Positions 14,219 through 36,332 of a stretch of 50,631 nucleotides of DNA are shown here, in pieces (position 1 is the stretch's first letter; the number at the start of each line of letters is the position of its first letter). The stretch lies in IMG/VR virus record IMGVR_UViG_643348551_000005; one strand, given 5' to 3'. The notes under the pieces were generated by a model that did not search any database, was not told the origin of the DNA, and worked only from the letters and a program-made list of their open reading frames with translations. This DNA comes from a virus (Duplodnaviria; Heunggongvirae; Uroviricota; Caudoviricetes). The translations under genes were made by a program, and so were the position numbers.

Positions 14219-15268
14219 ATGGGATTTATTTCACAACTATTCAATTTGCTTACCTCCAGGATAACTTCTGCAAAAACAATGACGCCTTCAAGTTTGCATG
14301 AGTTAACAGCTAACATAACTCCTAAACTCAAGAAACAAAACGGAAATATATCAATCGAAAACGATTGGCTTACTATTGATTCTCCTTATTTTTTTGGACA
14401 GGCGTATCTGTCTGCAAACAAACATTGGGTTGTAGGCTGTAGTGACTTTGATGGCAATGGAAGGGGAGGGCACCGGGAAAGTGGATTTGGAACAGTTGTT
14501 TTAGTTAATAAACCAACTTTTCGTATCCTTCATAAGCTCAGAACTATTGCCCGACCATTTAATGCTGCTGTCGCTGACACAGGTGATTATATTGTTCATG
14601 ACGCTGGATTTGGTTCTGCGCTGCAAGCTGATTTGATTGCTATTGATGTTGAAGGAAATGAAAAGTTTAGACGTCATTATGAAGCAAATATCTATAATAT
14701 CGGAATTTCTCATTGTGGTAAATACGCATCGGTTCAGACAGCCGCAGCGCCCGGTAAAGATGGAAATATCCTTGAGGTAATAAATCTGTGGTCAAAAACA
14801 ACAATATTTTCCATTAAACCTGAGTATGGATGGGCTGATAGTTATTTCTTCGATCTCGATGAAAATGGGGGGCTAAGATCGCTGAAAGTGAAATGCAAAA
14901 ATATTGGATACTTCAGATACACTGCCATCGGTATTCCCATTGACGTGGAAGCGTATAAAGATGCTTGTCTATATAAAGGAAATTTCAACCTTAAAGTAGA
15001 GGCCGCGAGAGCGCTTTTAAGAGAACATCCCAGTGAGAAGAATGCTCAAAAAGCATTGAAAGCAATTGAAATGGCTCTTAATGAAGGAGCGAAAGACCGA
15101 ACTGACTGGGCTGCAGCCGCATTTCGCATCAAAGGTGAAGCAAATGATTTACTTGGTAACTTTAGTGATGCTCTTGATGCCTATGAAAAAGCTTTGAGCT
15201 TTAATCCAAAAATAGGGGTTCAGAGACGAGTTAATGCTCTGCGTAAAAAATTACAGAGATTAAAATAA
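14219..15268 (+). CDS. Hypothetical protein (349 aa) with C-terminal TPR-like helical repeats; function unknown
   Basis: ATG with an SD (AGGAG) upstream. Low-GC codon usage like the neighbouring GmrSD-like gene. The C-terminal roughly 90 aa are helical-repeat-like (KALKAIEMALNEGAKDRTDWAAAAFRIKGEANDLLGNFSDALDAYEKALSFNP). No signal peptide and no catalytic motif that I can recognise. Confidence 0.6.
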   Translation: MGFISQLFNLLTSRITSAKTMTPSSLHELTANITPKLKKQNGNISIENDWLTIDSPYFFGQAYLSANKHWVVGCSDFDGNGRGGHRESGFGTVVLVNKPTFRILHKLRTIARPFNAAVADTGDYIVHDAGFGSALQADLIAIDVEGNEKFRRHYEANIYNIGISHCGKYASVQTAAAPGKDGNILEVINLWSKTTIFSIKPEYGWADSYFFDLDENGGLRSLKVKCKNIGYFRYTAIGIPIDVEAYKDACLYKGNFNLKVEAARALLREHPSEKNAQKALKAIEMALNEGAKDRTDWAAAAFRIKGEANDLLGNFSDALDAYEKALSFNPKIGVQRRVNALRKKLQRLK

Positions 15269-15752: not shown

Positions 15753-17063
<1,311 letters not shown>

Positions 17064-18161: not shown

Positions 18162-18451
18162 TGGTGAATTTACGTAAAGCGGCTAAAGGCCAGATGTGCC
18201 AGATCAGAATCCCTGGCTACTGCAATCACAATCCCGAAACCTCTGTGCTGGCGCATTACAGGCTGGCGGGGACGTGCGGAACAGCGACAAAACCACACGA
18301 TATGCAGGCGGCGATAGCCTGTAGCTCATGCCACGATCTAATCGACGGGCGGGTAAAAACCAGCGATTACACCAAAGAAGAATTGCGCCTGATGCATGCT
18401 GAAGGGGTTTTTCGCACACAAGAAATCTGGAGAAAGAAAGGTCATTTATGA
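18161..18451 (+). CDS. YbcO-like nin-region putative nuclease (DUF1364, Cys/His-rich)
   Basis: 96-aa product MVNLRKAAKGQMCQIRIPGYCNHNPETSVLAHYRLAG...ACSSCHD resembles DLP12 YbcO from memory, with the same Cys/His spacing. Confidence 0.7.
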   Translation: MVNLRKAAKGQMCQIRIPGYCNHNPETSVLAHYRLAGTCGTATKPHDMQAAIACSSCHDLIDGRVKTSDYTKEELRLMHAEGVFRTQEIWRKKGHL

Positions 18452-18990
18452 TTTACCCAACGAATACAGGAAAAAGCGGAGAACACCTTCGCCTCACCAC
18501 GCTGGAAAGTGTCTGGATTCAGGGAAAACTACGTATGTGGGGGCGCTGGTCGTATATTGGCGGTGGCAGGTCAGGGAATATGTTCAATCAGTTGTTGGCA
18601 TCCAAAAAACTGACGAAAACAGCCATTAATGAAGCCCTGCGCAGAATGAAAAAAGCGGGAATAGAGAAAGCTGAGCTGGAAGCGTTTTTGCGAGAGATGA
18701 TCAACGGCAAGCAAAAGAGCTGGCTGGCGCATTGTACTGATGCAGAGGCGTTATGTATTGATCGAGTCATAAGTGAGGTGCTGGCAGAGCATCCAGGATT
18801 GATTTGCATTCTCCGGCAACGCTATGAAGGGCGGGGGATGACTAAGCGCAAAATGGCTGAATTGCTAAATGATGCACACCCAGAGTGGTGTTTTAGCACA
18901 TGCGAAAAACGGATTGCTAATTGGTTAGCTGTTGCTGAGTATGCCCTATATATTCCCATGCGTGAATCATTTGCTGAGAAAATGGCTTGA
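18448..18990 (+). CDS. Late-gene antitermination protein Q (Phage_antitermQ-like)
   Basis: 180-aa ORF directly upstream of an AT-rich region with intrinsic terminators and the lysis cassette. The N-terminal W..GRW...GGG pattern and Cys/His-rich core resemble Q-family antiterminators. Confidence 0.65.
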   Translation: MIYPTNTGKSGEHLRLTTLESVWIQGKLRMWGRWSYIGGGRSGNMFNQLLASKKLTKTAINEALRRMKKAGIEKAELEAFLREMINGKQKSWLAHCTDAEALCIDRVISEVLAEHPGLICILRQRYEGRGMTKRKMAELLNDAHPEWCFSTCEKRIANWLAVAEYALYIPMRESFAEKMA

Positions 18991-20034: not shown

Positions 20035-20463
20035 ATGGGTTTTCGTAGCGCATCAATTCTTACGTTGATTATTAGTGGGATTATTATCGGGTGCACTGAT
20101 GCTGTATCGACAAATTATCATGACCGTACATCATATTACTCCGATAAAGCAATAGAGACACAGTATGTGAGTTCATCTGAACGTACTTCTGATGTTAGTG
20201 AGGATATCCGTCTGTATGCCCATCAAATCAAGAGCGCCATCGAAAAACAGTTCGGGGATGCGAGTAAGTATTCAGGAAAAGAGTGTACACTGAGAATGCA
20301 TATGGCCCCGAATGGCCTTCTACTGGAGGTTAAAAGAGAAAGTGGAGACCTCGATTTATGTCGTGAAGCGATGAATGCGATAAAGAATGCTGATATACCT
20401 GCCCCCCCTTCGCCGGAAGTATATAAAGTATTTCAAAATGGGGTGCTGGATTTTAAACCCTGA
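20035..20463 (+). CDS. Lipoprotein with a C-terminal TolA-domain-III-like domain (paralog 1)
   Basis: SD (GAGGA) upstream. Signal peptide with lipobox (IIIGC). The C-terminal roughly 75 aa (YAHQIKSAIEKQFGDASKYSGKECTLRMHMAPNGLLLEVKRESGDLDLCREAMNAIKNADIPAPPSPEVYKVFQNGVLDFKP) closely resemble the C-terminal domain III of E. coli TolA as I remember it (...YAGQIKSAIESKFYDASSYAGKTCTLRIKLAPDGMLLDIKPEGG...YEVFKNAPLDFKP). Confidence 0.7.
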   Translation: MGFRSASILTLIISGIIIGCTDAVSTNYHDRTSYYSDKAIETQYVSSSERTSDVSEDIRLYAHQIKSAIEKQFGDASKYSGKECTLRMHMAPNGLLLEVKRESGDLDLCREAMNAIKNADIPAPPSPEVYKVFQNGVLDFKP

Positions 20464-20613: not shown

Positions 20614-21009
20614 GTGGGATTAAAGAAAATCGTTATGTTGACTTTTTGGGTCGGTTTTGTTGCGGGATGCACACCTTTACACCCTTCAGATTGCCACAAA
20701 ACTACTGCTACAGGTAGTTGCAGTTCAGGACGCTGGGATGATCAGGATGAATGGGGGGCGCAAGCGCGGGGAATCAGAGCTGCAATTAATGCCAAACTTG
20801 ATGAGCCGCATAACTGGAAAGGGAAAAAATGCAGGTTGCATATGGAATTCTCTCAGGATGGCACGGCGTTAAAAATATCTACCAGTAACGGTGATAAAGC
20901 CTATTGCGAAGCGATAAAGTCCGCAGCTCATAAAGCCAAATTTCCGGCCTTCAACAATCCGGAAGTCTACAGAGATTTTCAGAAATCTGGCTTTGACATG
21001 CGAGGTTAG
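20614..21009 (+). CDS. Lipoprotein with a C-terminal TolA-domain-III-like domain (paralog 2, GTG start)
   Basis: SD (GAGGAG) 6 nt upstream of GTG. Signal peptide with lipobox (VAGC). C-terminal region (GKKCRLHMEFSQDGTALKISTSNGDKAYCEAIKSAAHKAKFPAFNNPEVYRDFQKSGFDMRG) is a diverged copy of the same TolA-III-like fold, with the two cysteines conserved. Confidence 0.65.
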   Translation: MGLKKIVMLTFWVGFVAGCTPLHPSDCHKTTATGSCSSGRWDDQDEWGAQARGIRAAINAKLDEPHNWKGKKCRLHMEFSQDGTALKISTSNGDKAYCEAIKSAAHKAKFPAFNNPEVYRDFQKSGFDMRG

Positions 21010-24029: not shown

Positions 24030-24166
24030 TATATGGCTGATTTATAATTGTGAGTTTAATATTATGTTGACTCACTCATTGATCCAATACCTAACTTTAC
24101 CAGCAACCCCTCCGTCCCCAGTAGCACTGGCTGCTGGGGTGCGTTTTATTCATAAAGCAAGGCTGT

Positions 24167-24958
24167 ATGAGCGAGAAATTAAAGATAGTCTATCGCCCAT
24201 TACAAGAATTGTCACCGTATGCGCACAACGCCAGGACGCACAGCCCTGAGCAGGTGGCACAACTGGTAGAAAGTATTAAGCAATTCGGCTGGACTAATCC
24301 GGTGCTGATTGACGAAAAGGGCGAAATTATTGCGGGTCACGGTCGTGTTATGGCGGCTGAAATGCTCAAAATGGATTCTGTTCCGGTCATTGTTCTGTCT
24401 GGCCTGACGGATGAGCAGAAAAAGGCGTACCGCCTGGCAGATAATCGCCTGCCGATGAATGCTGGCTGGGATGAAGATCTGTTGCGGATGGAGCTGTCGG
24501 ACCTAATCAATGCTGATTTTGATGTCTCCCTGACAGGCTTCATCCCGACAGAAATTGATGAACTGTTGACGGATGTTTTGCCCGGTACAGGAAATGAGGA
24601 GGAGCCGTATACGACGAAAATTGATACGCCTGTTTATGAGCCGTCGGGCGGTAAACCGGATATCAGTGAACTGTACGACGATACGAAAACTCAGGAGCTG
24701 ATCAGCCGGATACGTTCGGCGTCCCTTGAGCCTGATATTGAGAAATTCCTCCTGTGTGCGGCAGAACGTCACACGGTGTTTAATTTCAGCAGAATTGCGG
24801 ACTATTACGCTCACGCCCCCTCTGAAATTCAGTGTTTTTTCGAGGAGTCGGCGCTGGTGATCATTGATTATCAGCAGGCTATTGAAAATGGATTTGTCCG
24901 GATGACGCAGCGCATGGTGGAGATCATGCATGGTGGTGAGGAGGAGGAATATGCGTGA
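24167..24958 (+). CDS. ynaK: ParB-like nuclease (ParB N-terminal / Srx-fold) domain protein, intact YnaK-like
   Basis: N-terminal ParB-N signature (IVYRPLQELSPYAHNARTHSPEQVAQLVESIKQFGWTNPVLID...GEIIAGHGR) and an acidic C-terminus. Corresponds to the position of ynaK, which is truncated in K-12 Rac. Confidence 0.7.
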   Translation: MSEKLKIVYRPLQELSPYAHNARTHSPEQVAQLVESIKQFGWTNPVLIDEKGEIIAGHGRVMAAEMLKMDSVPVIVLSGLTDEQKKAYRLADNRLPMNAGWDEDLLRMELSDLINADFDVSLTGFIPTEIDELLTDVLPGTGNEEEPYTTKIDTPVYEPSGGKPDISELYDDTKTQELISRIRSASLEPDIEKFLLCAAERHTVFNFSRIADYYAHAPSEIQCFFEESALVIIDYQQAIENGFVRMTQRMVEIMHGGEEEEYA

Positions 24959-25883
24959 TGATTTTTGCGCCTTTATTCTGACTCACGGGCGACCGGACAA
25001 AGTTCTGACTTACCGGACGTTGCGTCGTGCTGGCTATACCGGGAAAATTTTTATCGTTGTTGATGATGAAGATAAGACACGGAATCAGTACATGGCTGAA
25101 TTTGGTGAACAGGTGCTGGTGTTTTCCAAAGCCGATATCGCCAGTCGTTTTGACGAAGCCGATAATTTCTGTGACCGCCGCTCAATTTTTTACGCCCGTA
25201 ATGCCTGTTTCGACCTGGCAAAACTGGTCGGGTGTAAATACTTCATTCAGCTCGATGATGATTATCACGAGTTCCAGTTTCGGGTGGATCGCAACTATGA
25301 CCAGGCCTATTTTCCGATAAGGAAACTGGATGCGATCCTTTCTGAAATGCTGGCGTACTACGAATCAATACCTGCTCTTTCCATCGCTATGTCGCAGGGC
25401 GGGGATTTTCTTGGTGACAATGGCGGCCATGCTTCGTGGGTGAAACGCAAGGCAATGAACAGCTTTATCTGTTCGGTTGATCGACCGTTCTCATTCATGG
25501 GGCGCATTAACGAGGATGTGAATACGTACACGAATCTCGGTCGCTGTGGTGAATTGTTTATGACGATCGGTGCTGTCCAGTTAGGGCAGAAACAGACGCA
25601 GAAAAACAGCGGCGGAATGACCGAGCTGTATCTGGATTCCGGAACCTACGTTAAAAGTTTTTACTCCGTCATGTATGCGCCGTCGTGCGTAAAAATCTCA
25701 CTGATGGGTGCCAGCCATAAACGCATTCACCATCAGGTCACCTGGAACAACGCTGCAGTAAAAATCCTTCACGAAAAATACAGGAAGAAGACACCCTGCA
25801 TATCAATGGGGGTGACAAATGATTCCGTATTCGAAAGTCGAGTCTCTGGCAGCGTGCCGGATGACTGCACAACAAATCGCTGA
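24951..25883 (+). CDS. Putative GT-A-fold (family-2-like) glycosyltransferase, YdaY-like
   Basis: Start at ATG 24951, preceded by a GAGGAGGAGG SD and overlapping the upstream stop (translational coupling). Motif FILTHGRPDKVLTYRTLRRAGYTGKIFIVVDDED resembles the GT2 N-terminal nucleotide-binding region, and IQLDDDYHEF is a DxD-like motif. The assignment is tentative. Confidence 0.45.
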   Translation: MRDDFCAFILTHGRPDKVLTYRTLRRAGYTGKIFIVVDDEDKTRNQYMAEFGEQVLVFSKADIASRFDEADNFCDRRSIFYARNACFDLAKLVGCKYFIQLDDDYHEFQFRVDRNYDQAYFPIRKLDAILSEMLAYYESIPALSIAMSQGGDFLGDNGGHASWVKRKAMNSFICSVDRPFSFMGRINEDVNTYTNLGRCGELFMTIGAVQLGQKQTQKNSGGMTELYLDSGTYVKSFYSVMYAPSCVKISLMGASHKRIHHQVTWNNAAVKILHEKYRKKTPCISMGVTNDSVFESRVSGSVPDDCTTNR

Positions 25884-26070
25884 CGTTCTGGATGTTGATC
25901 TGAACCGACTGAAAGAAAATCGGGAAGCAATGACAGATTTTTATGCGGCCATCCGTAAGGGCAGAGCGAAAGGTGAAGCCGAGTTACGAGCGGCATTGTT
26001 TAAGCTTGCCAGAAAAGGGGATGCCTTTGCTCTGCGCGAACTACTCAGGGTGGATAAAAATCAGGACTAA
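25819..26070 (+). CDS. Small helical protein (83 aa) upstream of the terminase small subunit
   Basis: SD (GGGGGTGA) before the ATG; overlaps the preceding gene's 3' end by 65 nt; function unknown. Confidence 0.45.
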   Translation: MIPYSKVESLAACRMTAQQIADVLDVDLNRLKENREAMTDFYAAIRKGRAKGEAELRAALFKLARKGDAFALRELLRVDKNQD

Positions 26071-26073
26071 CTG

Positions 26074-27168
26074 ATGAGCAGACCGGACTGGGGGGCGTTG
26101 CAGCAGGAGTATATTGCTGAATACACCCGCTCCGGTATATCTCCGGTGGCATGGTGTGAAGCAAGGGGACTGAATTACGCAACAGCCCGTCGTTACATCA
26201 AAAAAACTCCGAAAAATGCGCAGACAGAAATGTGCAAAACTGCGCAAAAAAGTGCGCAGAAAAAATCTGCGCAGACTGCACAAAAGCGGAACGAAAAATC
26301 TCAGGAAAAAAAGCCAGTATTCGATGCGGGCCTGAATGAGGGCGACGCGGAGGAATTTTCGTTCTGTCCCGATGAATTCGGCATTTCTGACCAGCAGGCT
26401 AAGTTTGCGATGCTTGTTGCTCAGGGTAAAAAGCCGACAGAGGCGTACCGACTAGCCGGTTATGAGGGGCAAGGTGCGACAGCTAACAGCAACGCCAGTC
26501 GTATGCTTAGAAATGCCAGGGTTTTTCGCGCTATCAGCTACTTCCGCAATCAGTACCAGAAACGCTATACCGCAGACCTGGATTTACTAGTGAGTCAGTT
26601 GATGGCTATTGTCCTGGCCGACCCCAATCAGCTTGCACAATTTCGCCGTGTTAACTGCCGTTATTGCTGGGGCGAGAATCATCTCTACCAGTGGCGCGAT
26701 ATAGCAGAATTCGACAAGGCAGCGGCGCAGGCTTCCAGAGATGGCAAACCCGAACCGGAATATGGAGGCCTCGGCTTTGTTGATAACGCCATACCCAATC
26801 CGGACTGCCCGAAGTGCTGCGGTGAGGGAACGGGACAGCTTTATATGGCTGATACCACTCTGCTTGATGGGGATGCGCGGCAATTATATGCAGGGGCAAA
26901 ATTCGGAAAATTCGGCGTTGAGATCCTGCTGGAGGATAAGGCTGCCGCCCGGCGTGAATTGTTGCGTTTGTTTTCTGCTGGCGGGGCTTTATGTGCAGAT
27001 AAACGGCTACAGGAACTGGAAATTGAACGGCGCAGAATGGAAAACCAGAAGCTGCGCAAAGAGATCGAAACGGTGGAAGATAATGAACATCCCCAGCCTG
27101 TGGCGATCAATATTAATGTGGTTGATGCCAGAGTAAGGAGTGATGAAGATGATCTCTCCGACGCTTAA
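26074..27168 (+). CDS. Terminase small subunit (Terminase_2-like)
   Basis: Central motif KPTEAYRLAGYEGQGATANSNASRMLRNARV typical of phage small terminase subunits, an N-terminal HTH-like region, and position immediately upstream of the large subunit. Confidence 0.78.
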   Translation: MSRPDWGALQQEYIAEYTRSGISPVAWCEARGLNYATARRYIKKTPKNAQTEMCKTAQKSAQKKSAQTAQKRNEKSQEKKPVFDAGLNEGDAEEFSFCPDEFGISDQQAKFAMLVAQGKKPTEAYRLAGYEGQGATANSNASRMLRNARVFRAISYFRNQYQKRYTADLDLLVSQLMAIVLADPNQLAQFRRVNCRYCWGENHLYQWRDIAEFDKAAAQASRDGKPEPEYGGLGFVDNAIPNPDCPKCCGEGTGQLYMADTTLLDGDARQLYAGAKFGKFGVEILLEDKAAARRELLRLFSAGGALCADKRLQELEIERRRMENQKLRKEIETVEDNEHPQPVAININVVDARVRSDEDDLSDA

Positions 27169-28450
27169 TGTGCCTCAGGCGCGATTTCTTTCAATGCCCC
27201 ATAAATTTAAAGCCTATATTGCTGGTTTTGGCTCGGGCAAAACATGGGTTGGGTGTGGCGGCATATGCAAGGGGATTTGGGAGCATCCAGGTATAAATCA
27301 GGGATATTTTGCGCCAACGTATCCCCAAATTCGCGATATTTTTTACCCTACAGTGGAAGAAGTTGCTGCTGACTGGGGATTGAACGTAAAAATTAATGAG
27401 GGAAATAAAGAGGTTCACTTTTATTACGGACGCCAGTATCGGGGAACCACTATCTGCAGATCGATGGAGAAGCCACAAACGATCGTCGGTTTCAAAATTG
27501 GTAATGCGTTGGTGGATGAACTGGACATTTTGCCGAAGGAAAAAGCCAGAACGGCGTGGCGCAAGATAATTGCACGTATGCGTTATAAGATTGATGGACT
27601 TCGCAACGGTATTGACGTTACAACCACGCCGGAAGGATTCAAATTTGTCTACGAGCAGTTTGTTAAAGCCGTGCGTGAAAAAACAGAGCTGGCCTCACTG
27701 TATGGTCTGGTGCAGGCATCTACTTTCGATAATGAAAAGAACCTGCCAGCAGATTACATTCCTTCGCTTCTTGAATCATACCCTCCAGAGCTGATTAAAG
27801 CCTATCTTCGAGGACAGTTTACTAACCTGACAAGTGGTACTGTTTACCATCAGTTTGACCGGAAACTGAATAATTGCGAAGAAGTGGAGCAGCCAGGGGA
27901 GCCGATTTATATTGGGATGGATTTTAACGTTGGAAAGATGGCGGGAATCGTCCATGTGCTGCGTTTGGGGCTTCCATGTGCGGTAACTGAAATCATCAAT
28001 GCCTACGATACGCCGGATATGATCCGCATCATTAAAGAACGCTTCTGGCTGTATGATGGGAATGATTACCGGAAAGTGAGGGAAATTTATATTTATCCAG
28101 ATGCTTCCGGGGATTCCAGAAAATCAAGTAACGCAAGTACGACGGATATAGCCCAGCTTAAGCAGGCTGGTTTTAACGTTGTGGTGAACAGCTCGAACCC
28201 GCCAGTAAAAGATCGCGTTAACTCAATGAATGCAATGTTCTGCAATGCCAATGGTGAGCGTCGCTATAAAGTTAATGTGAAGCGTTGCCCGTTATATGCC
28301 GAATCTCTGGAGCAACAGGTCTGGGATGAGAAAGGGGAGCCTGATAAAAAATCTGGCAATGATCACCCGAATGATGCCGGAGGTTATTTCATCGTTAAGC
28401 AATTCCCTATTGTCAAACCGACCGGAAGAGTCACATCACTTCGGATTTAA
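27149..28450 (+). CDS. Terminase large subunit (ATPase/nuclease)
   Basis: Walker A (AGFGSGKT) and Walker B-like (ALVDELD) motifs. SD TAAGGAG upstream. Start ambiguous among 27140, 27143 and 27149. Confidence 0.85.
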   Translation: MISPTLNVPQARFLSMPHKFKAYIAGFGSGKTWVGCGGICKGIWEHPGINQGYFAPTYPQIRDIFYPTVEEVAADWGLNVKINEGNKEVHFYYGRQYRGTTICRSMEKPQTIVGFKIGNALVDELDILPKEKARTAWRKIIARMRYKIDGLRNGIDVTTTPEGFKFVYEQFVKAVREKTELASLYGLVQASTFDNEKNLPADYIPSLLESYPPELIKAYLRGQFTNLTSGTVYHQFDRKLNNCEEVEQPGEPIYIGMDFNVGKMAGIVHVLRLGLPCAVTEIINAYDTPDMIRIIKERFWLYDGNDYRKVREIYIYPDASGDSRKSSNASTTDIAQLKQAGFNVVVNSSNPPVKDRVNSMNAMFCNANGERRYKVNVKRCPLYAESLEQQVWDEKGEPDKKSGNDHPNDAGGYFIVKQFPIVKPTGRVTSLRI

Positions 28451-28452
28451 TT

Positions 28453-29859
28453 ATGGCTGATATATCAACACCCAACCTCGACTATAACGATATGCTGGAG
28501 GCGTGGGATATTAACGACGCACTGATGGGCGGTACGCTTGAAATGCGCAGGCAGGGGGAAAATTATCTCCCAAAATGGCCTAACGAAGATGAAGACGCTT
28601 ATAAAAAACGCCTGTCTGTGGCTACGCTACTTCCTGTGTATGAAGAAAGCATCAAGCAAAATATTGGGCGCATATTTGCAGAGCCGACAGTATTGAGTGA
28701 GGAAACGCCGGCAAAAATCAGGGAATATGCAGAAAATATCGACATGGAGGGGAGCCGACTGGATGTGTGGGCGCAGCAATTTTTCAGCCTCGCATTTCAG
28801 TATGGTGTGGCACATGCGCTGGTGGACTATCCACGAACGGATATGAAAGAGATTCGTACAAAAGCCGATGAAAACGCGACCGGTGGTCGTCCGTACGTTA
28901 CGATGCTGAATCCACGCCAGGTTATTGGATGGAAATCGAAAGTTGAAAAAGGGAAAGTTGTTCTCACTGATTTGCGTATAAAAGAGGTCATCATTATTGA
29001 TGGTGATGATTTCGGGCAGAAGAAGGTGGAGCAGATCCGCCATATTATGCCCCGTCGAGTTGAAATTTATCGACGTAGCGAAGGCACTAATGGCGAATCT
29101 GTCTGGACGCTTCATGAGTCATGGAATACCAGCCGTGATGATATTCCTCTGGTAACACTGTACACGAAGAAAACAGGATTTATGCGTGGTACACCGCCAT
29201 TGCTTAATCTTGGCTTGCTGAATATCAAGCACTGGCAAAGCCAGAGCGAGCAGGACAATATTCTTCATGTTACCCGCGTTCCATTGCTGGTGGCCTACGG
29301 GCTGGACAGGAATGAAGAACTGACGGTTGGTGCATCCACCGCTACGATTTTTGAGGACAGAACAAAAAATGGCCTCGAATATGTTGAACATAGTGGCGCA
29401 GCGATAGAATCTGGCGAAACATCACTTGAGAAGCTGGAAAATCAGATGCGTCATGCCGGCGCTAAACTTCTGCGTGCTGAAAATACATCCACCAAATCTG
29501 TTGATCAGACTAATGAAGAGCGAATGCAGGAAAACTCGCCGCTTTATACAATGGCGAACTCCCTCGAAGATGCCCTCGATAATATTCTCCAGATAATGGC
29601 GGAATGGATCGGAGAGAGTTGCGGTGGCAATGTGGATGTGCGCACTGAACTGGATGTATCTGCCCAGGTGTTTGACTCATCCTCCGCGCTGGCTGTTCAG
29701 TCATTGCGTCAGGGCGGTGATATACGTCAGATTGATGCGGTTCGGGTGTTGCAGGCGTTGAAATTTATCGATCAGGATTCCCGTCCAGAGGAAGTGATCG
29801 ATGAATTAAAAAATCAGAGTGTAATGCTGATGGAAATCAATGATGCAAACCGTGAATGA
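28453..29859 (+). CDS. Portal protein
   Basis: 468-aa ORF immediately after the large terminase, the canonical portal position and size. Confidence 0.75.
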   Translation: MADISTPNLDYNDMLEAWDINDALMGGTLEMRRQGENYLPKWPNEDEDAYKKRLSVATLLPVYEESIKQNIGRIFAEPTVLSEETPAKIREYAENIDMEGSRLDVWAQQFFSLAFQYGVAHALVDYPRTDMKEIRTKADENATGGRPYVTMLNPRQVIGWKSKVEKGKVVLTDLRIKEVIIIDGDDFGQKKVEQIRHIMPRRVEIYRRSEGTNGESVWTLHESWNTSRDDIPLVTLYTKKTGFMRGTPPLLNLGLLNIKHWQSQSEQDNILHVTRVPLLVAYGLDRNEELTVGASTATIFEDRTKNGLEYVEHSGAAIESGETSLEKLENQMRHAGAKLLRAENTSTKSVDQTNEERMQENSPLYTMANSLEDALDNILQIMAEWIGESCGGNVDVRTELDVSAQVFDSSSALAVQSLRQGGDIRQIDAVRVLQALKFIDQDSRPEEVIDELKNQSVMLMEINDANRE

Positions 29860-30955
29860 ACGGCTGCGTGATGAATCAATTGCTCATGCAGTCTGGATAT
29901 CCCGCTATAGCACTGGCGTGGCTGCCAGAATGGTGAAAATACTGAATGACAGCGATGCGGAACTTACTGCTCGCCTGCTGATAGCACTGGACAGCCTCGA
30001 TCCAGGTAATTTTACCGTTAAGCGCCTGGAGTCACTTCTGGCGAGCGTCAGAAAGGTTAACCGCACTGCTATTAACAGCATGTTTACCAGTCTCTCCGGA
30101 GAGCTGAACGAGCTGGCAATTTATGAGGCTGGTTATCAGTTAAGTCTGTTTGATTCTATGCTACCTGATTTTGTTGCTGATGTTCACCCTCTGGTTGGTA
30201 TCTCTCCTGATGCACTTTATGCCGCTGCAATGGCGCGACCATTCCAGGGACGACTGCTCAGTGAGTGGGCCTCAGATCTTGAGGCGGATCGGCTCAGACG
30301 CATAACAAATACAGTGCGTCAGGGTTTTTTGCTGGGGGATACCAATGAGCAGATCGCAAGAAAAATTCGGGGACATGTCAGTAAGGGATTTCAGGATGGT
30401 GCATTGCAGATGAGCCGGGCTAATGCGGCCAGCATTGCAAAAACAGCGGTTGGACATCTTGCTGCTACTGCCCGTGAGAGTTTTGCCAGCGCGAATAATG
30501 ATTTGATTAAGGGTAAGCAATGGTTATCAACGCTTGATAATCGTACTACGCCACAATGTCGAATCAGGGATCGCCTCAAATATACGCTGAATAATAAACC
30601 TGTAGGTCACAGCGTGCCTTATTTGCAGGGGCCGGGAAAAATTCATTTCTGCTGCCGCTCAACGGAAACGTTCATTCTGAAATCAGCGAAGGAACTGGGT
30701 ATTGATGTTCGCGATATTTCCCCGGCTGAGCGGGCCAGCATGGATGGCGTGGTGGCCGGAGATACAACCTACAGGGAATGGTTTTTGCGTCAGCCTTACA
30801 CCAGACAAAAACAGATTGTGGGGGAAACCCGAGCAAAGCTGATTCGGGATGGTGGTATGTCGCCAGATGAATTTTACACCGATAAAGGCGAATGGCTGAC
30901 GCTGAAGCAGCTCCGTGAGCGTGATGCACAGGTATTCAGAAAAGCAGGGATTTAA
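29840..30955 (+). CDS. Head morphogenesis / minor head protein (Mu F-like / SPP1 gp7-like)
   Basis: 371-aa ORF directly after the portal, overlapping its end; position and size typical of a minor head protein. Confidence 0.6.
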   Translation: MMQTVNERLRDESIAHAVWISRYSTGVAARMVKILNDSDAELTARLLIALDSLDPGNFTVKRLESLLASVRKVNRTAINSMFTSLSGELNELAIYEAGYQLSLFDSMLPDFVADVHPLVGISPDALYAAAMARPFQGRLLSEWASDLEADRLRRITNTVRQGFLLGDTNEQIARKIRGHVSKGFQDGALQMSRANAASIAKTAVGHLAATARESFASANNDLIKGKQWLSTLDNRTTPQCRIRDRLKYTLNNKPVGHSVPYLQGPGKIHFCCRSTETFILKSAKELGIDVRDISPAERASMDGVVAGDTTYREWFLRQPYTRQKQIVGETRAKLIRDGGMSPDEFYTDKGEWLTLKQLRERDAQVFRKAGI

Positions 30956-30974
30956 ATAAATCATTTATTACAAC

Positions 30975-31001
30975 AGGCTACCTTCGGGTGGCCTTTTTTA
31001 T
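30975..31001 (+). terminator. Intrinsic terminator-like hairpin (AGGCTACC-TTCG-GGTGGCCT + TTTTTTA)
   Basis: GC-rich stem with one mismatch, a tetraloop, and a T-tract, just after the head morphogenesis gene. Confidence 0.5.
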
Positions 31002-31059
31002 TGCTGCGATCCGGATGGTGAGCAGCGTAACTGTCGGAAGACTTAAACCAGGTACTAAT

Positions 31060-31824
31060 ATGAAACTGAAAACGGTCGAGATTAACGGAAAACAATACGC
31101 AGAAATTGATACTGCTGGCCTGCCAGTTTATGTGCACGACGATGGTAAAGAAATTGGCTTCGATGCACCGCTGGCGACAAAAAAAATTACAGAGCTTAAT
31201 GGCGAGGCAAAAAATCATCGCCTGGCTAAAGAAGCTGCAGAGGAAAAACTGGCTAAGTTTGCCGCTATCGAAGACCCGAAGAAGGCGATCGAGGCACTGG
31301 AAATGCTGTCAAAAATCGACCAGAAAAAGCTGCTCGATGCGGGACAGGTTGACCAGGTTAAGGCAGAAATTACGAAAAATTTTCAGCAGCAATTAGATGA
31401 AGAAAAGCAACGCTCTCAGATGCTGGAGAAGCAGCTTTACGATTCTATGATTGGCGGTAGTTTTGCGGGTTCAAAATATATTGCCGATAAAATTGCGATC
31501 CCGGCAGATTTATTACAAGCCCGCTTCGGGCAGGCATTCAAAGTGGAAGAAGGGAGGATCGTTGCTTATGACGCTTCCGGCAACAAAATTTATTCCCGCG
31601 CGAAGCCAGGCGAACTGGCGCAGTTTGATGAGGCGCTGGAGTTCCTTGTCGAAAATTACCCTCAGAAAGACTACATCCTGAAAGCCAGTGGCAACAATGG
31701 CGGCGGCTCCCGTCCGACACAGCATGATATTGGTCAGAAAACGATGAAACGCTCTGCTTTTGATGCACTGGATGTTGCAGGTAAGCAAAACGCATTGAAA
31801 GACGGTATCACAATCGTTGATTAA
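31060..31824 (+). CDS. Putative scaffolding protein (coiled-coil rich)
   Basis: Charged, helical, Lys/Glu/Gln-rich sequence positioned between the head morphogenesis and major capsid genes. Start placed at the ATG downstream of the terminator hairpin. Confidence 0.55.
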   Translation: MKLKTVEINGKQYAEIDTAGLPVYVHDDGKEIGFDAPLATKKITELNGEAKNHRLAKEAAEEKLAKFAAIEDPKKAIEALEMLSKIDQKKLLDAGQVDQVKAEITKNFQQQLDEEKQRSQMLEKQLYDSMIGGSFAGSKYIADKIAIPADLLQARFGQAFKVEEGRIVAYDASGNKIYSRAKPGELAQFDEALEFLVENYPQKDYILKASGNNGGGSRPTQHDIGQKTMKRSAFDALDVAGKQNALKDGITIVD

Positions 31825-31922
31825 CACATTTGTCAGCTTCCGGATGGGAGCTGGTGTCAGGGCTGGATAGCTCATTACTCCATCTATTCACAATTACGCA
31901 AATTTTTAAGGAATATTTAATT

Positions 31923-33062
31923 ATGGCTGGAAATACCCTGACCGGGTTGATCCCGACTATTTATACCGCCCTGGATGTTGTATCCCGTGAGCAGGTAGGT
32001 TTTATCCCTGCGGTAGCAAAAAACGCAAAAGCTGACGCCGCAGCAAAAGATCAGACGGTAACCGCGCCAGTTGCGCCTGAGGCGAAAACCGAAGATATCG
32101 TACCGGGGCCGTCAGCTCCGAATACCGGTGATCAAAATATTGGCACTGTTGATGTAAAAATTACTAAATCCAAAATGGCACCGGTTAAATGGAATGGTGA
32201 AGAACAACTGGCTCTTGGCCCTTCAGGGACTTACAACACCATTCTGGCTGATCAGTTCAAGCAGGCTTTTCGCGCCCTTGCAAACGAGGTTGAGGCTGAT
32301 CTTGGTGCGTTGTATTTCGGTGCTTCCCGCGCCGTGGGAACCGCAGGGACAACGCCGTTTGGTGTTAAAGATGATCTTTCTGATGCTGCTCTGGCTCGTC
32401 AGGTTCTGGAGGATAACGGCGCACCGACAACCGATCTGCAGATGGTGCTTGGCTCCACTGCCATTGCTAATTTGCGCGGAAAACAGTCTGTATTGTTTAA
32501 AGTGAATGAATCCGGCACTGAACAGCTACTGCGTGAGGGCGTGTTGGGGCGTCTGGAGGGATTCAATATTCACAGTTCGGCAGGTGTGAAACGAGCGCCA
32601 AAGGTTGCTGCAACTGGTTATCTCGTGAATGGAGAGAAAAAAGAAGGCGATGTTCTTATTTCCATTGATACTGGTTCGGGGAGTATTTCTGCAGGTCAGA
32701 TTGTTACGTTCGCTGGTGATCCGAATCAGTATGTTGTGGCAGCAGCGACCAGCAATCTGATTACTCTTGCAGCGCCCGGACTGCGTCAGGATCTGGCCGA
32801 TGATACTGCCATCACAGTTGTTGGGGCCTTTACGGCAAATATGGCGTTTGATCGCAACGCGTTTCTGCTGGCATCCCGTACTCCGGCAATGCCGGAAGGT
32901 GGCGATAATGCTGATGATGTAATGAATGTTACGGACCCGATTTCAGGGATTACGTTCCAGATTGCACTGTATCGTCAGTATCGCCAGGTGCGCTATGAAG
33001 TTGGACTGGCATGGGGTGTTTCATCAGTGAAGCCGGCACATGGTTGTCTGATTCTTGGTTAA
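31923..33062 (+). CDS. Major capsid protein
   Basis: 379-aa ORF after the scaffold-like gene, with an SD (AAGGA) and followed by a strong intrinsic terminator, as is common for capsid genes. Confidence 0.7.
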   Translation: MAGNTLTGLIPTIYTALDVVSREQVGFIPAVAKNAKADAAAKDQTVTAPVAPEAKTEDIVPGPSAPNTGDQNIGTVDVKITKSKMAPVKWNGEEQLALGPSGTYNTILADQFKQAFRALANEVEADLGALYFGASRAVGTAGTTPFGVKDDLSDAALARQVLEDNGAPTTDLQMVLGSTAIANLRGKQSVLFKVNESGTEQLLREGVLGRLEGFNIHSSAGVKRAPKVAATGYLVNGEKKEGDVLISIDTGSGSISAGQIVTFAGDPNQYVVAAATSNLITLAAPGLRQDLADDTAITVVGAFTANMAFDRNAFLLASRTPAMPEGGDNADDVMNVTDPISGITFQIALYRQYRQVRYEVGLAWGVSSVKPAHGCLILG

Positions 33063-33070
33063 ACATTCAA

Positions 33071-33092
33071 ACGGGGCTTCGGCCCCATTTTT
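33071..33092 (+). terminator. Intrinsic terminator (GGGGC-TTCG-GCCCC + ATTTTT) after the capsid gene
   Basis: Perfect 5-bp GC stem with a TTCG tetraloop and a T-tract, 10 nt after the capsid stop. Confidence 0.7.
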
Positions 33093-33104
33093 AATGGGGG
33101 GCAT

Positions 33105-33281
33105 ATGGCCGGATTAACTAAAGAGCAAAGAGCACAGCGTGAAGCCGCACAAAAAACGCAAATTGAGTTAGTGGTTATGGTGACCGATTATCAGATGTTT
33201 CCCGGCGCACCAACTATCGCTAATGTTCATCCTGATGAAGTTGACAACTGGAAGGCTATGGGCTGGAAAACTCAGGAGTAA
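33105..33281 (+). CDS. Possible small head-associated protein (58 aa)
   Basis: Hand-translated ORF MAGLTKEQRAQREAAQKTQIELVVMVTDYQMFPGAPTIANVHPDEVDNWKAMGWKTQE fills the 220-bp gap between the capsid gene and the next gene. Not in the supplied track. Confidence 0.35.
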   Translation: MAGLTKEQRAQREAAQKTQIELVVMVTDYQMFPGAPTIANVHPDEVDNWKAMGWKTQE

Positions 33282-33284
33282 CAC

Positions 33285-33680
33285 ATGATCACTTACGTGA
33301 CCTGTGATGACGTTGATAATGCGTTTGGGAACGCCTGGACGAGTGAGAACGCTAAAAATAAAGCTGTTTTAATGGCTAATGCCTGGCTTAATGGCTTCAA
33401 CCTGAAAATTAACCCATCCCGTATTCCGGAAGAGGTAAAACTTGCGGGAGCATATGCAGCCAGAATTGCCTCATTCGGTAAGTTGTTTCAGCAGAAAAAT
33501 GATTCTGGCGTTGTTATCAGTAAAGCCGTGTCGGCTGACGGGGTCAGTGTATCGAAATCATTTTCTGAGTTGCCAGCAAACAGCACTGCATTGCTTGAAC
33601 CCGATTTACAGCTTGCGATAGCACTGCTGAAACCGTACGGACTTAGTCGCTCACAAGTCAGGGTTGTGAGGGGGGGATAA
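33285..33680 (+). CDS. Head-tail connector / head completion protein (131 aa)
   Basis: Position in the head-to-tail joining gene block; tightly packed with its neighbours. Confidence 0.5.
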   Translation: MITYVTCDDVDNAFGNAWTSENAKNKAVLMANAWLNGFNLKINPSRIPEEVKLAGAYAARIASFGKLFQQKNDSGVVISKAVSADGVSVSKSFSELPANSTALLEPDLQLAIALLKPYGLSRSQVRVVRGG

Positions 33681-34063
33681 TGGGGCTTCGTGAAGAGATT
33701 CAGTCAGAGGTTGCCGCTGCTTTTGATGAGGATTTAGCGGACGCCGTGAGTGATTTTTCTGGTTCTTACGTTACGCACCGGCACTGGGATCCTGTGACGG
33801 AAACTGGCGGCGAATCCACCGCAATCTATACCGGGCGAGGCGTGTTGACACGTTATAAGCTGGGCAGAATTGATGGGATTAATATTTTGCATGGTGACCT
33901 TAAATTAACCGCTCTGGTATGCGAGGTTACGGATAAACCAGCTGTCGACCATATTATTGAGATTTATGATCCTGTATCAAGGCAGTTACAACGATACGAG
34001 GTAATTACAGCAAGTGTAGATCCTTCCGCATCAGTTTACTCTATCCAGTTAAGGAGAGCGTAA
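33680..34063 (+). CDS. Head-tail joining protein (127 aa)
   Basis: Start overlaps the preceding stop; position in the head-tail joining block. Confidence 0.5.
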   Translation: MGLREEIQSEVAAAFDEDLADAVSDFSGSYVTHRHWDPVTETGGESTAIYTGRGVLTRYKLGRIDGINILHGDLKLTALVCEVTDKPAVDHIIEIYDPVSRQLQRYEVITASVDPSASVYSIQLRRA

Positions 34064-34444
34064 ATGGCAAAGGCATGGGATATAGAACCGTCAATATTTG
34101 CCGGGATGATTGAGGAAGATGTAGGGCTGAAGATTCGCTACATCGCTATTCAGATTCTTACTGCTATTGATATTGCTGCTCCGGTTGATACCGGACGTTT
34201 CAGAAATAACAACCTGGTGTCGTTACAGCATCCCGATTTTGGTATATCTGATAACGTGGATCCGAACGGTACGATTGCTGTTCAGCGTGGGATCGGGGTT
34301 ATTTCGAAAGCTGCAAATTACGGAGTTATTTATATCCAGAATAACCTTCCTTATGCAGAGGCTCTTGAAAACGGTCATTCACAACAAGCGCCAACTGGCG
34401 TGTATGCCAACGCTTTTCATGGTGTTTTACAGGCTTACAAATGA
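34064..34444 (+). CDS. Tail completion / head-tail adaptor protein (126 aa)
   Basis: Position in the head-tail joining block. Confidence 0.5.
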   Translation: MAKAWDIEPSIFAGMIEEDVGLKIRYIAIQILTAIDIAAPVDTGRFRNNNLVSLQHPDFGISDNVDPNGTIAVQRGIGVISKAANYGVIYIQNNLPYAEALENGHSQQAPTGVYANAFHGVLQAYK

Positions 34445-34833
34445 CGTTTACTGAAATCAGAAATACGGTTATTTCCAGAATGACGGCACAGACGATTATT
34501 GATGGAAAAGACGTATTGTATCCGAACGCGCCAACGTTCGATCCTTCCGGTAAGTTAATCTGGGCGCGGTTAAGTAATATTCCCGGGCAGGCTGGAGTTA
34601 ATGAAATTGGCGCGGGGCCGATTGTTTATCGCACGGGGATAATCATTATTCAGTTATTTGTCCCCGCAGGTTCTGGTTCAAAACTCATTACTGAGACAGC
34701 CGATAAATTGCGGGAACTGTTTGAGTTTCAGGATGACGATCGTCTCAGTTACCAGGCTGTTTCCTCAATAGCCGTTGGCGAAAAGAATGGCTGGTTCCAG
34801 CTTAATCTTCAAATTCCATATCGCGCGCTCTAG
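34441..34833 (+). CDS. Tail terminator-like protein (130 aa)
   Basis: Position immediately upstream of the major tail protein; overlaps the preceding gene. Confidence 0.5.
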   Translation: MTFTEIRNTVISRMTAQTIIDGKDVLYPNAPTFDPSGKLIWARLSNIPGQAGVNEIGAGPIVYRTGIIIIQLFVPAGSGSKLITETADKLRELFEFQDDDRLSYQAVSSIAVGEKNGWFQLNLQIPYRAL

Positions 34834-34859
34834 CGCAATTAATGACATAGGAGGCTCCT

Positions 34860-35822
34860 GTGAGTTCAGGTGCAAAGGTTATCTCGGCATTTATCCGGGA
34901 GACGGTTGCAGGCACTACGCCAGCAAGTGGTGACTGGAGTTTATTAAAACGCACAAGCTGGGGAGTAAAACCCACCCAGAATAAAGGCGAAAATAATGAG
35001 ATTGGTGGCTCCCGGATGGCTCAGGGGGCGACGCCTGGCACTGTGGATGTCGGCGGTGATGTTGGTACCAAATTTCGCTGGGGTCAACATGATGATTTTC
35101 TTGCATCCTGTTTCGGCGCGGAATGGTCAGGCGATTCTCTGACAATGGGGAATGAGCGAATAACATTTTCTCTGGCGACCTATGCGTCCGATGTCGGAAT
35201 TGCCTCTGTCGTCAGAGGAGCGCAGGTTGGCTCATGGAAAATGCAGATCCCTAACGACGGCGATATTACAGCGACCGTAACCTTTGCCGGACTGGACTGG
35301 GAATCAAAGGCCGATGATACGAATTTTATCAAAGGCGAACCTGTGGATAGTGCAGGAAAGCTACGTTATTCGTTTAAGGAGGTTTCAGCAGTAAGCCTGA
35401 ATGGTGTTGCCGGAGGTAACGGTTTTTGTATCGACAGTTTTGATATTCAGTTCGATAACAAACTCCAGACACAGCGTTGTATCGGGACTGGCTCGCCTTA
35501 TGCAGGAGCAAATATTCCGACTACTTTTACACCGTCCGGTACGGTGACGCTTTCATGGTCTAAAGCCGCGTGGGAAATCTGGAGTAAAACACTGACTGGA
35601 GAAACAGTTCCGTTCAGCTTCACGCTTTCGAATGGAGAGGGGGCATACACTTTCAGTTTCCCGAAGGTTCAGGTGTCAGGTGAATGGCCTGATGGGGGTA
35701 ATAGCGACATTATCCAGGTTCAATTGAGCATTACCGCAGCAGATGAAGCACCTACGATAACCAGAAAAAAAAATTCCCCGGCTGCCGTGATCGCAAAAGC
35801 CAGTGCTGAGGCGATTAGTTGA
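34860..35822 (+). CDS. Major tail (tube) protein
   Basis: 320-aa ORF with a strong SD (AGGAGG) and GTG start, directly upstream of the tail-chaperone frameshift pair and tape measure, the canonical position of the tail tube gene. Confidence 0.65.
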   Translation: MSSGAKVISAFIRETVAGTTPASGDWSLLKRTSWGVKPTQNKGENNEIGGSRMAQGATPGTVDVGGDVGTKFRWGQHDDFLASCFGAEWSGDSLTMGNERITFSLATYASDVGIASVVRGAQVGSWKMQIPNDGDITATVTFAGLDWESKADDTNFIKGEPVDSAGKLRYSFKEVSAVSLNGVAGGNGFCIDSFDIQFDNKLQTQRCIGTGSPYAGANIPTTFTPSGTVTLSWSKAAWEIWSKTLTGETVPFSFTLSNGEGAYTFSFPKVQVSGEWPDGGNSDIIQVQLSITAADEAPTITRKKNSPAAVIAKASAEAIS

Positions 35823-35870
35823 TTTTCCGTTATTCCTCCTGTGGTACTGCCCTACAGGGGGACGCATTGA

Positions 35871-36332
35871 ATGAGGTTATGGATGTTTATTCTTAATCAG
35901 AAAATTATCATTGGTGGAGAACGCTGGTTTACGCCAATGAAGGACTTAAAACCTGTAGACGGGTTAAAACTGTTGGTGGCAAGCAGCGATAACGATCAGT
36001 ATCGCTCCCGTAATGCATTAATCCGTCGCCACATTGAGAAAATGGATGCCAGTTTGCACGTCGGAACGAAGGAGTTTGATATTTCAAAGGTTTCCGAGGT
36101 GGATTCTGTTGATGATTTACTCATTGATAATGCCGCTCGTTATCTGCTGAAAGACTGGAAAGGGGTTGGTGAACTGGTTAATGGTGTTGAGGTTGCACTG
36201 GAATATACGGCAGAACGAGGGATCGCGCTGCTTAAGCAGAATCCAGAGTTGTACTGGCAGATCCTTGCAGAAGCAGCCAGCATCGCCCAGGGTAAAGAGC
36301 AGCAGAAGCAGGATACGATAAAAAAGCCATAG
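35871..36332 (+). CDS. Tail assembly chaperone (lambda G-like)
   Basis: Position upstream of the tape measure. The slippery heptamer A AAA AAG at 36320-36326 lies just before the stop, and the -1 frame continues into the next ORF. Confidence 0.7.
   Translation: MRLWMFILNQKIIIGGERWFTPMKDLKPVDGLKLLVASSDNDQYRSRNALIRRHIEKMDASLHVGTKEFDISKVSEVDSVDDLLIDNAARYLLKDWKGVGELVNGVEVALEYTAERGIALLKQNPELYWQILAEAASIAQGKEQQKQDTIKKP

Follow-up and report, generated by a model that had tools for sequence, protein, structure and literature searches.

What might a phage glycosyltransferase modify when its gene is coupled to that of a ParB-like protein and stands just upstream of the terminase genes? Glycosylation of their DNA gives phages a major counter-defence and molecular biology a supply of enzymes, and to our knowledge the DNA glycosylation pathways that are understood all first install a hydroxyl handle on a pyrimidine. 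The question is raised by two genes at positions 24,167 to 25,883 of IMG/VR virus record IMGVR_UViG_643348551_000005, a stretch of 50,631 nucleotides (the window) that is a complete Rac-like lambdoid prophage of Escherichia coli. The second gene encodes a predicted GT-A glycosyltransferase (GT) of the TET-associated glycosyltransferase (TAGT) family, and its relatives are accompanied across phyla by a ParB-type partner protein, referred to below as the adaptor. Both protein families were already known, and ParB-assisted DNA modification is established for dioxygenases. What appears to be new is that a ParB-type partner with an unannotated C-terminal domain (CTD) is the constant companion of a large TAGT clade, that this clade as sampled here comes without a handle-making enzyme, and that a common E. 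coli prophage harbours an intact copy, for which K-12 provides a natural null background. A first-pass annotation of this DNA, made from its letters alone, had missed the obligatory cross-phylum pairing, the conservation of the CTD (and not of the ParB domain) and the absence of a dioxygenase.

The glycosyltransferase and its ParB-type partner

The first-pass annotation had tentatively placed the downstream protein among the GT-A glycosyltransferases, and both profile searches and structure prediction bear this out. The 310-residue protein matches Pfam PF20691 (TAGT) with 121.1 bits against a cut-off of 27.5 (E 7.6e-35), residues 8-222 aligning with positions 4-205 of the 205-position model, and phrog_842 with an E-value of 1.1e-103. 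PF20691 is also recorded, as a precomputed match, on all 120 of the 120 homologues listed. The two motifs that had suggested the fold are real: IFIVVDDED occupies residues 33-41 and LDDDYH residues 101-106, and in 16 homologues of 61-83% identity D38 and D41 of the former and D102-D104 and Y105 of the latter are invariant. R14 and E188-D189 are invariant in the same sequences and, with D102-D103-D104, are the counterpart of the R...DDD...ED(Y/F) motif described for GT-A DNA glycosyltransferases of phages and for the trypanosome base-J glucosyltransferase (JGT), the third position of ED(Y/F) being V190 and not Y/F.

The AlphaFold2 (AF2) models of the GT and of the adaptor were built from alignments of 16-17 sequences. 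That of the GT is confident for residues 1-150, with predicted local distance difference test (pLDDT) values mostly of 85-96, and displays a GT-A Rossmann-like domain. Its best Foldseek matches in the PDB are SpsA and other GT-A enzymes (E about 1e-5), and those in BFVD are TAGT-domain proteins (E 7.7e-19, TM 0.62-0.68). Glycogenin and the S-glycosyltransferases SunS and ThuS are also among the structural matches, as generic matches to the fold. A sequence search of the PDB with the GT profile gave no match at E up to 1, and PADLOC lacks a model for the GT; in UniRef the protein of E. coli bears the name 'GREB1-related protein'. Taken together, profile and model place the downstream protein in the TAGT family of GT-A glycosyltransferases, with an intact catalytic motif.

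The 263-residue adaptor carries the N-terminal ParB/Srx domain that had been proposed for it. Its sole Pfam match is PF02195 ParB_N (E 1.2e-6; 28.9 bits against a cut-off of 26.3; residues 23-90), and it matches phrog_620 over its full length (8.5e-91). The N domain is closest to ParB modules linked to DNA methyltransferases, namely phrog_498 (1.2e-50) and the N-terminal module of PADLOC MTase_II (PDLC03229; 2.2e-38), whereas matches to partition ParBs are far weaker (1e-6 to 1e-10). The AF2 model has pLDDT values of about 80-90 across the ParB/Srx part, for which the best Foldseek matches are CTP/CDP-bound ParB, Noc, PadC and KorB (E about 1e-6, ~140 columns). Among close homologues G57, G59, R60, A63 and A64 (a box II-like GHGR) and D92-N93 are invariant, and the box I arginine, R23, gives way to M or I in part of them. 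The identical 263-residue protein represents a cluster of 1812 sequences. The label of 'nuclease' that the ParB domain had received finds no support here.

A canonical partition ParB was considered and rejected, the protein scoring 38.5 bits against the TIGR00180 parB_part cut-off of 58.45, and over residues 11-94 only. Pfam scans of the window, including its unidentified open reading frames (ORFs) of at least 100 amino acids, found no ParA-like gene. Around the pair a search for parS-like or pac-like repeats gave only short, weak ones and no convincing palindrome, the clearest repeats lying inside the gene for the terminase small subunit (terS).

The overlap of the two genes, with a Shine-Dalgarno-like sequence in the last codons of the first, is as originally described. 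Direct reading of the sequence gives GAGGAGGAGGAA (24938-24949), 1 nt ahead of the GT start codon when the AA is counted, or 3 nt when measured from the last G, and the adaptor TGA (24956-24958) leaves an overlap of 8 nt, ATGCGTGA (24951-24958). An alternative GT start at ATG 24930, which would yield 317 amino acids, was rejected: all homologues start at MRDDFCAF, giving ATG 24951. At its other end, the GT has a 30-residue acidic C-terminal tail (residues 281-310, 25791-25883) that is present only in the Escherichia lineage and in no other homologue. A shifted stop codon is the probable origin of the tail, which runs into the beginning of the following ORF (25819 or 25861 to 26070).

Conservation of the pair across phages and in E. 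coli

A scan of one genome per species yielded 61 loci with GT relatives (GT identity 40-100%), from Enterobacteria, Bacteroidota, Veillonella, Clostridia, Verrucomicrobiota, Kiritimatiellia, Spirochaetes, Ignavibacteria, alphaproteobacteria and archaeal metagenome-assembled genomes. A partner lies directly 5' of the GT gene on the same strand in 56 of the 61, abutting or overlapping it in 52; of the five loci with no partner detected, three are cut by a contig end and two hold GT fragments. The pair is also found in Lactobacillus delbrueckii phages c5, LL-Ku, phiLdb, Ld17 and PMBT4, in L. gasseri phi jlb1, in haloarchaeal virus HHTV-2, in Nocardia phage NTR1 and in a Porphyromonas phage (GT identity only 27%); a literature search for DNA modification in HHTV-2 returned nothing relevant. 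Its downstream neighbour is usually a terminase, of four unrelated types (Terminase_6N here; TerL_ATPase, GpA_ATPase and Terminase_3 elsewhere), and in the cos phage c5 the two genes are ORF1-ORF2, directly after the cos end. The two genes thus move together as a cassette, coming to rest at the front of the packaging operon.

No third gene recurs with them: when the 567 neighbouring ORFs of the 61 loci were clustered and 102 representatives compared with Pfam, no family occurred more than twice. The only accessory gene with an obvious link to glycosylation encodes an NDP-sugar epimerase/dehydratase (Pfam Epimerase, GDP_Man_Dehyd, RmlD_sub_bind), inserted between the TAGT gene and terS in the same arrangement on two contigs (L155 3418-4380 and L156 3009-3971). 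Known DNA-sugar pathways show the same, and the insertion argues for a genuine activity that draws on nucleotide sugars, with diversification of the sugar. On the evidence of these loci, adaptor and GT appear to be one functional unit, with obligatory pairing.

The part of the adaptor that is conserved appears to be the CTD, and the ParB/Srx domain a frequent but dispensable addition. The CTD was detected in 55 of the 61 loci, as against 39 of the 61 for the N domain, and ParB_N is matched by 31 of 51 partners; mean pairwise identity is 0.47 for the CTD and 0.48 for the GT, compared with 0.30 for the ParB N domain. Divergence of GT and CTD is correlated (r 0.46, a value reached by 0 of 999 permutations). 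An alignment of the 51 partners, from many phyla, shows the linear motif Y148-T-x-K-I-x-x-P155-x-Y157-E-P and, after it, a helical domain; Y148, P155, Y157, L195, R201, A211, Y214, E226 and D234 are invariant. The motif stretch (residues 136-170) has pLDDT values below 50 and is probably unstructured. No Pfam model covers the CTD, and a PDB search with the adaptor profile matched only the N domains of ParB, Noc and Srx, leaving the CTD unmatched.

Seven of the 51 partners (132-145 amino acids) consist of the CTD only, and in the four such loci with at least 6 kb of upstream sequence no ParB N domain is detectable anywhere; one locus has two tandem CTD genes (L118). At the other extreme, a partner of 516 amino acids (L103 189-1736) has an additional N-terminal S-adenosylmethionine-dependent methyltransferase domain (Methyltransf_23/12/25) before the ParB domain and CTD, a domain order that seems to link the GT adaptor to ParB-methyltransferase fusions. 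An exhaustive search for the CTD gave 1189 representatives at 50% identity, in which it is nearly always C-terminal in proteins of 130-300 amino acids; among the best 150 of these 1189 there is no fusion of CTD and GT.

Within E. coli, an exact copy or a close relative of the 1717-bp segment holding the pair occurs in 1579 of the 5426 complete genomes; in 888 of the 5426 the pair is intact, with 80% or more of the segment present, and K-12 and ~690 other genomes hold only fragments. Both genes of the prophage are full ORFs, as they had been judged to be, and evolve under purifying selection (ratios of nonsynonymous to synonymous substitution rates, dN/dS, of 0.07-0.15 wherever dS is unsaturated), which rules out a chance pair of ORFs.

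These data bear on the possibility that the locus is an inactive relic of a dioxygenase-ParB-GT pathway, or a canonical partition or nuclease ParB beside an unrelated GT. The fragments kept in K-12 and the other ~690 genomes, and ParB_N as the sole Pfam match of the first protein, are what such explanations would draw on. We regard them as scarcely credible: both genes are under selection and the catalytic motif does not vary, the pair persists from phylum to phylum with no dioxygenase beside it, and the subthreshold TIGR00180 score comes with no helix-turn-helix (HTH), ParA gene or parS-like site.

The K-12 counterparts, ynaK and ydaY, had been taken for decayed equivalents of the two genes, and this holds for the first only. 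MG1655 has the order trkG, ynaK, ydaY, ynaA, and alignment of its Rac prophage to the window reveals a single clean 11.56-kb deletion of window 24421-35980 that fuses 24420 to 35981. The gene ynaK is therefore a 5' stump, about the first 85 codons of the ParB-like gene. In contrast, ydaY corresponds to window ~35981-36332, 3' of the tail tube gene, and is a remnant of the tail region; the deletion removed the GT, terminase and head genes altogether, and the GT is absent from K-12, not decayed. A literature search on ynaK returned nothing relevant.

In genomes 100% identical to the window, PGAP labels the intact 263-codon gene a 258-bp 'partial, missing C-terminus' ynaK pseudogene (L001 20001-20258, window 24167-24424), leaves 24425-24950 without annotation and calls the GT a 'hypothetical protein'. 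The pseudogene call appears to be an annotation artefact, presumably driven by the K-12 reference, that affects many E. coli genomes.

What the glycosyltransferase may act on

In a recent survey, PF20691 was equated with the T2/T6 beta-glucosyl-HMC-alpha-glucosyltransferase, modelled as GT-A, and 'solitary TAGT homologs' of undefined function were counted in 288 of 753 phage genomes (PMC13216743, NAR 2026); the E. coli prophage GT falls among these solitary homologues. The T2/T6 enzyme belongs to the same Pfam family and the same phrog_842, and it has the GT-A fold and the R...DDD...ED motif. It differs in adding a second glucose to alpha-glucosyl-5-hydroxymethylcytosine supplied by a dCMP hydroxymethylase and alpha-GT pathway, while the prophage is without hydroxymethylase, alpha- or beta-GT, or TET enzyme. 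JGT and the GT-A enzymes associated with 5mYOX in metaviromes have the same active-site motif as well (bioRxiv 10.1101/2023.12.21.572611); they act on 5-hydroxymethyluracil (5hmU) or 5-hydroxymethylcytosine (5hmC) made by JBP/TET-type dioxygenases, none of which is encoded here. The same preprint notes ParB-like neighbours of virus-encoded GTs.

The closest precedent for the adaptor is ParB176, a phage ParB homologue without a DNA-binding domain that its cognate thymine dioxygenase, 5mYOX176, requires on double-stranded DNA (O'Toole et al., PNAS 2026; PMC13229309). Like the adaptor, with its domain of nucleotide-binding type, ParB176 combines a nucleotide-binding domain with a CTD and has no HTH, adjoins a post-replicative DNA-modifying enzyme, often near terminase genes, and has the Myxococcus xanthus and Caulobacter crescentus ParB proteins as its closest structures. 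Its client, however, is a dioxygenase in clusters with kinases and amino-acid:DNA transferases, whereas that of the adaptor is a GT with no dioxygenase; the GT-associated dioxygenases are in fact the ParB-independent ones (PMC13229309). Moreover, the conserved part here is the CTD, which can stand alone, and the likeness to ParB176 is known at the level of architecture only.

A second precedent is given by ParB domains fused to DNA methyltransferases, which are frequent in prophages (phrog_498; PDLC03229; PF01555 fusions, PMC12704722). It is their ParB module that the N domain of the adaptor matches best, and prophages and the vicinity of the terminase are their common habitat; the pair differs in having a separate, coupled GT in place of a fused methyltransferase, and in the dedicated CTD that intervenes. 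ParB-domain proteins also accompany the CmoX cytosine carboxymethyltransferases.

The reading that we favour, with a probability of about 0.5, is a late-expressed, adaptor-dependent DNA glycosylation module that acts before packaging. DNA as the acceptor in any form, the sparse marking discussed below included, is somewhat better than an even bet. It is the unexplained acceptor chemistry, and a partner that is acidic throughout, that keep confidence in a DNA acceptor at only about one in two. The reading starts from observations, namely membership of the TAGT family, the obligatory pairing, the intact catalytic motif, the position, the selection and the lack of a dioxygenase or hydroxymethylase.

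Judging from gene order, the pair would be expressed late, with the packaging machinery, through Q-antiterminated read-through. The CTD would bind the GT, and the complex would glycosylate replicated phage DNA ahead of packaging, the sugar then masking the DNA from nucleases of the next host. The adaptor may serve as do the ParB homologues of thymine dioxygenases, enabling the enzyme or holding it on double-stranded DNA. By analogy with ParB176 and KorB-KorA, the ParB/Srx domain, where present, may bring the complex under nucleotide-dependent control or help to retain it on DNA. The first-pass annotation had suggested a DNA modification or anti-restriction module; this fits the TAGT family and the ParB-partner precedents, but it is still a function that we infer, and no enzyme making a hydroxymethyl acceptor is encoded.

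Several findings weigh against this reading, first among them the lack of an acceptor. In the prophage window, Pfam scans that took in the unidentified ORFs of at least 100 amino acids detected no Tet_JBP/5mYOX enzyme, no thymidylate-synthase-like or dNMP hydroxymethylase and no C5-methyltransferase. No acceptor-making enzyme was found in the complete 31.8-kb phage c5 as annotated, nor in eight Pfam-annotated contexts with flanks of 8-10 kb, and no TET/JBP dioxygenase is among the 25 most frequent of the 62 families matched by the 102 neighbour representatives. The characterised relatives all use a pre-installed hydroxyl, on 5hmC (dCMP hydroxymethylase, T-even), on 5hmC or 5hmU (TET/JBP-type 5mYOX), or on glucose attached to 5hmC, and we know of no precedent for a sugar being attached directly to a DNA constituent that carries no modification. 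The ~65% of GT contigs that have no base-modification enzyme nearby have been judged 'less likely' to be DNA-modifying (bioRxiv 10.1101/2023.12.21.572611).

The proteins themselves supply further objections. Identity to the TAGTs of T4-like Aeromonas phages is 23-26% in tblastn (E about 1e-4), and the T2/T6 enzymes were not retrieved. Confidence is low for the C-terminal half of each AF2 model. All parts of the adaptor are strongly acidic (pI 4.5, as against 8.6 for the GT core), and Pfam scans match no HTH family in it, both of which are odd for a DNA-loading factor; the CTD-only partners lack even the ParB domain.

A clade without a handle-making enzyme implies an acceptor other than the known ones. 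In one version the pair puts the sugar directly on ordinary DNA (a canonical base, a host-type methylated base or a DNA end), with no hydroxymethyl handle, which we consider unlikely.

The absent DNA acceptor pathway is equally an argument for the main rival, protein glycosylation, in which the GT would modify the adaptor itself, for example at an invariant Tyr or Thr of the Y-T-x-K-I-x-x-P-x-Y-E-P motif, or a packaging or virion protein made with it. The partner is acidic and has no DNA-binding domain, its invariant Tyr/Thr/Pro motif lies in a probably unstructured stretch just before the conserved domain, and the GT adjoins structural and packaging genes. Glycogenin self-glucosylates, and it is found with SunS and ThuS among the GT-A structural matches, generic as these are. 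The TAGT domain of the eukaryotic protein GREB1 O-GlcNAcylates a protein, ER-alpha (PMC7968844), which also counts against a DNA acceptor; GREB1 shares the TAGT domain with the GT and differs from it in architecture and in having no ParB partner.

On the other side, the ParB subtype of the adaptor is the one fused to DNA methyltransferases, and DNA-modifying enzymes have ParB partners time and again. Every characterised TAGT/GT-A enzyme of phages has DNA as its substrate (PMC13216743; bioRxiv 10.1101/2023.12.21.572611). In addition, the terminases are unrelated and no structural or packaging family is conserved across the loci, which leaves the adaptor as the only candidate for a universal protein acceptor. 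On balance, protein glycosylation seems a doubtful explanation.

The constant proximity to terminase genes, and to the cos site in c5, would also suit a sparse, site-directed marking of DNA for the phage's own packaging or regulation, in place of bulk masking from host nucleases, the ParB-type domain confining the GT near pac or cos. Phage thymine dioxygenase/ParB pairs modify part of their sites, favouring certain sequences, and have been suggested by their authors to play epigenetic-like roles (PMC13229309); Burke et al. cite a proposal of Aravind that, in the course of packaging, ParB guides modification apparatuses to particular sites. However, the surroundings of the pair show no conspicuous parS-like repeat or palindrome, the adaptor is without HTH and CTD-only partners exist, and the position upstream of the terminase is a common insertion point for accessory late genes. 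The problem of the missing acceptor applies to it equally, and we find such marking rather improbable.

Another rival is lysogenic conversion of a cell-envelope glycan, as by TarP, a prophage GT-A enzyme that alters surface receptors. TarP is the best PDB match of related phage GT-A enzymes (bioRxiv 10.1101/2023.12.21.572611), and the prophage does carry other accessory genes (trkG, the TolA-domain genes and GmrSD). The pair, however, lies in the late region behind a terminator, and no promoter-like site was seen between the hairpin (24116..24139) and the ParB-like gene. The pair also occurs in an archaeal virus, in 191-kb Vibrio phages and in c5, a small cos phage for which no integrase or cI-type repressor is annotated, its only repressor being Cro-like. 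An obligatory cytoplasmic ParB-type partner would make no sense in such a role, and no flippase or membrane partner is encoded. We consider envelope modification very improbable.

The surrounding prophage and what the pair may mean

The gene order of the prophage runs from integrase through recT/recE, sieB, the repressor region, replication genes, the Q-like antiterminator, lysis genes and trkG to the packaging, head and tail genes. The features discussed here are collected in Table 1.

Table 1. Positions of the gene pair, its neighbours and CTD-only partners elsewhere
Feature	Sequence	Positions	Strand	Remarks
Q-like antiterminator gene	window	18448-18990		upstream of lysis genes, trkG, then the gene pair and terminase
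Terminator-like hairpin and T run	window	24116..24139	+	after trkG, 27 nt 5' of the ParB-like gene; 10-bp stem, 7 GC pairs, tail TGCGTTTTAT
Adaptor gene	window	24167..24958	+	263 amino acids and stop; ParB/Srx N-terminal domain, acidic linker, conserved CTD
ParB/Srx nucleotide-binding-type domain	window	24167..24571	+	residues 1-135
Partner CTD	window	24608..24955	+	residues 148-263; linear motif, then helical domain
Shine-Dalgarno-like sequence	window	24938..24949	+	within the last codons of the adaptor gene
TAGT-family GT-A glycosyltransferase gene (predicted)	window	24951..25883	+	310 amino acids and stop
D102-D103-D104 codons	window	25254..25262	+	DxD/DDD metal and nucleotide-sugar motif
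R14 codon	window	24990-24992	+	GT catalytic motif
E188-D189 codons	window	25512-25517	+	GT catalytic motif
Small ORF between GT and terS	window	25861..26070	+	alternative start 25819 gives 83 amino acids; overlaps the lineage-specific GT tail
Terminase small subunit, terS	window	26074-27168	+	usual downstream neighbour of the pair; Pfam Terminase_2, Terminase_6N, Terminase_6C across terS and large subunit
Terminase large subunit	window	27140-28450	+	same Pfam terminase set
CTD-only partner	L104	7607-8008		
CTD-only partners	L118	6460-6798 and 7606-8001		
CTD-only partner	L131	7574-8008		
CTD-only partner	L148	6459-6875		191-kb Vibrio phage pv27

The small ORF that follows the GT matches the phrog_309 'terminase small subunit' region (8.3e-23), and PGAP annotates it (L001 21695-21904, equal to window 25861-26070). 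Inside terS, window 26199-26275 holds three direct repeats, each A-rich with TGCGCAGA, at 26210-26224, 26246-26260 and 26261-26275; these may be pac or TerS-binding repeats, or may just be the DNA face of a repetitive, AQK-rich stretch of peptide. Between the Q-like gene and the lysis cassette are two genes with a TolA C-terminal domain (20035-20463 and 20614-21009, both +; Pfam TolA 2.4e-23 and 1.3e-14).

The early region of the same prophage carries a gene for a GmrSD-family type IV restriction enzyme (12009-13691, +; GmrSD_N 1.7e-37, GmrSD_C 1.9e-17, PADLOC HEC-06 4e-221). It is followed on its 3' side by a TPR protein and an IS3-family element (14219-15268, +; 15753-16966, -), and the arrangement of GmrSD, TPR and IS3 exactly as here is found in only 15 complete E. 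coli genomes. Enzymes of the GmrSD type attack DNA that is glycosylated or modified otherwise. A putative DNA glycosyltransferase and a GmrSD-type nuclease are thus co-resident on one element.

Since the pair has an intact copy in a common E. coli prophage and K-12 is without the GT, the question is directly testable: both the target of a solitary TAGT and the role of its ParB-type partner come within reach of standard E. coli genetics and nucleoside mass spectrometry. The result would be informative either way, whether it is a new DNA modification or a ParB-linked protein glycosylation, and it would be relevant to the interplay with type IV nucleases, of which the prophage's own GmrSD homologue is one. 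Should the sugar indeed go onto DNA without a hydroxymethyl handle, the CTD would be the factor that makes the acceptor accessible, and a new DNA modification chemistry would be present in about one-sixth of sequenced E. coli strains and in phages of many phyla and of archaea.

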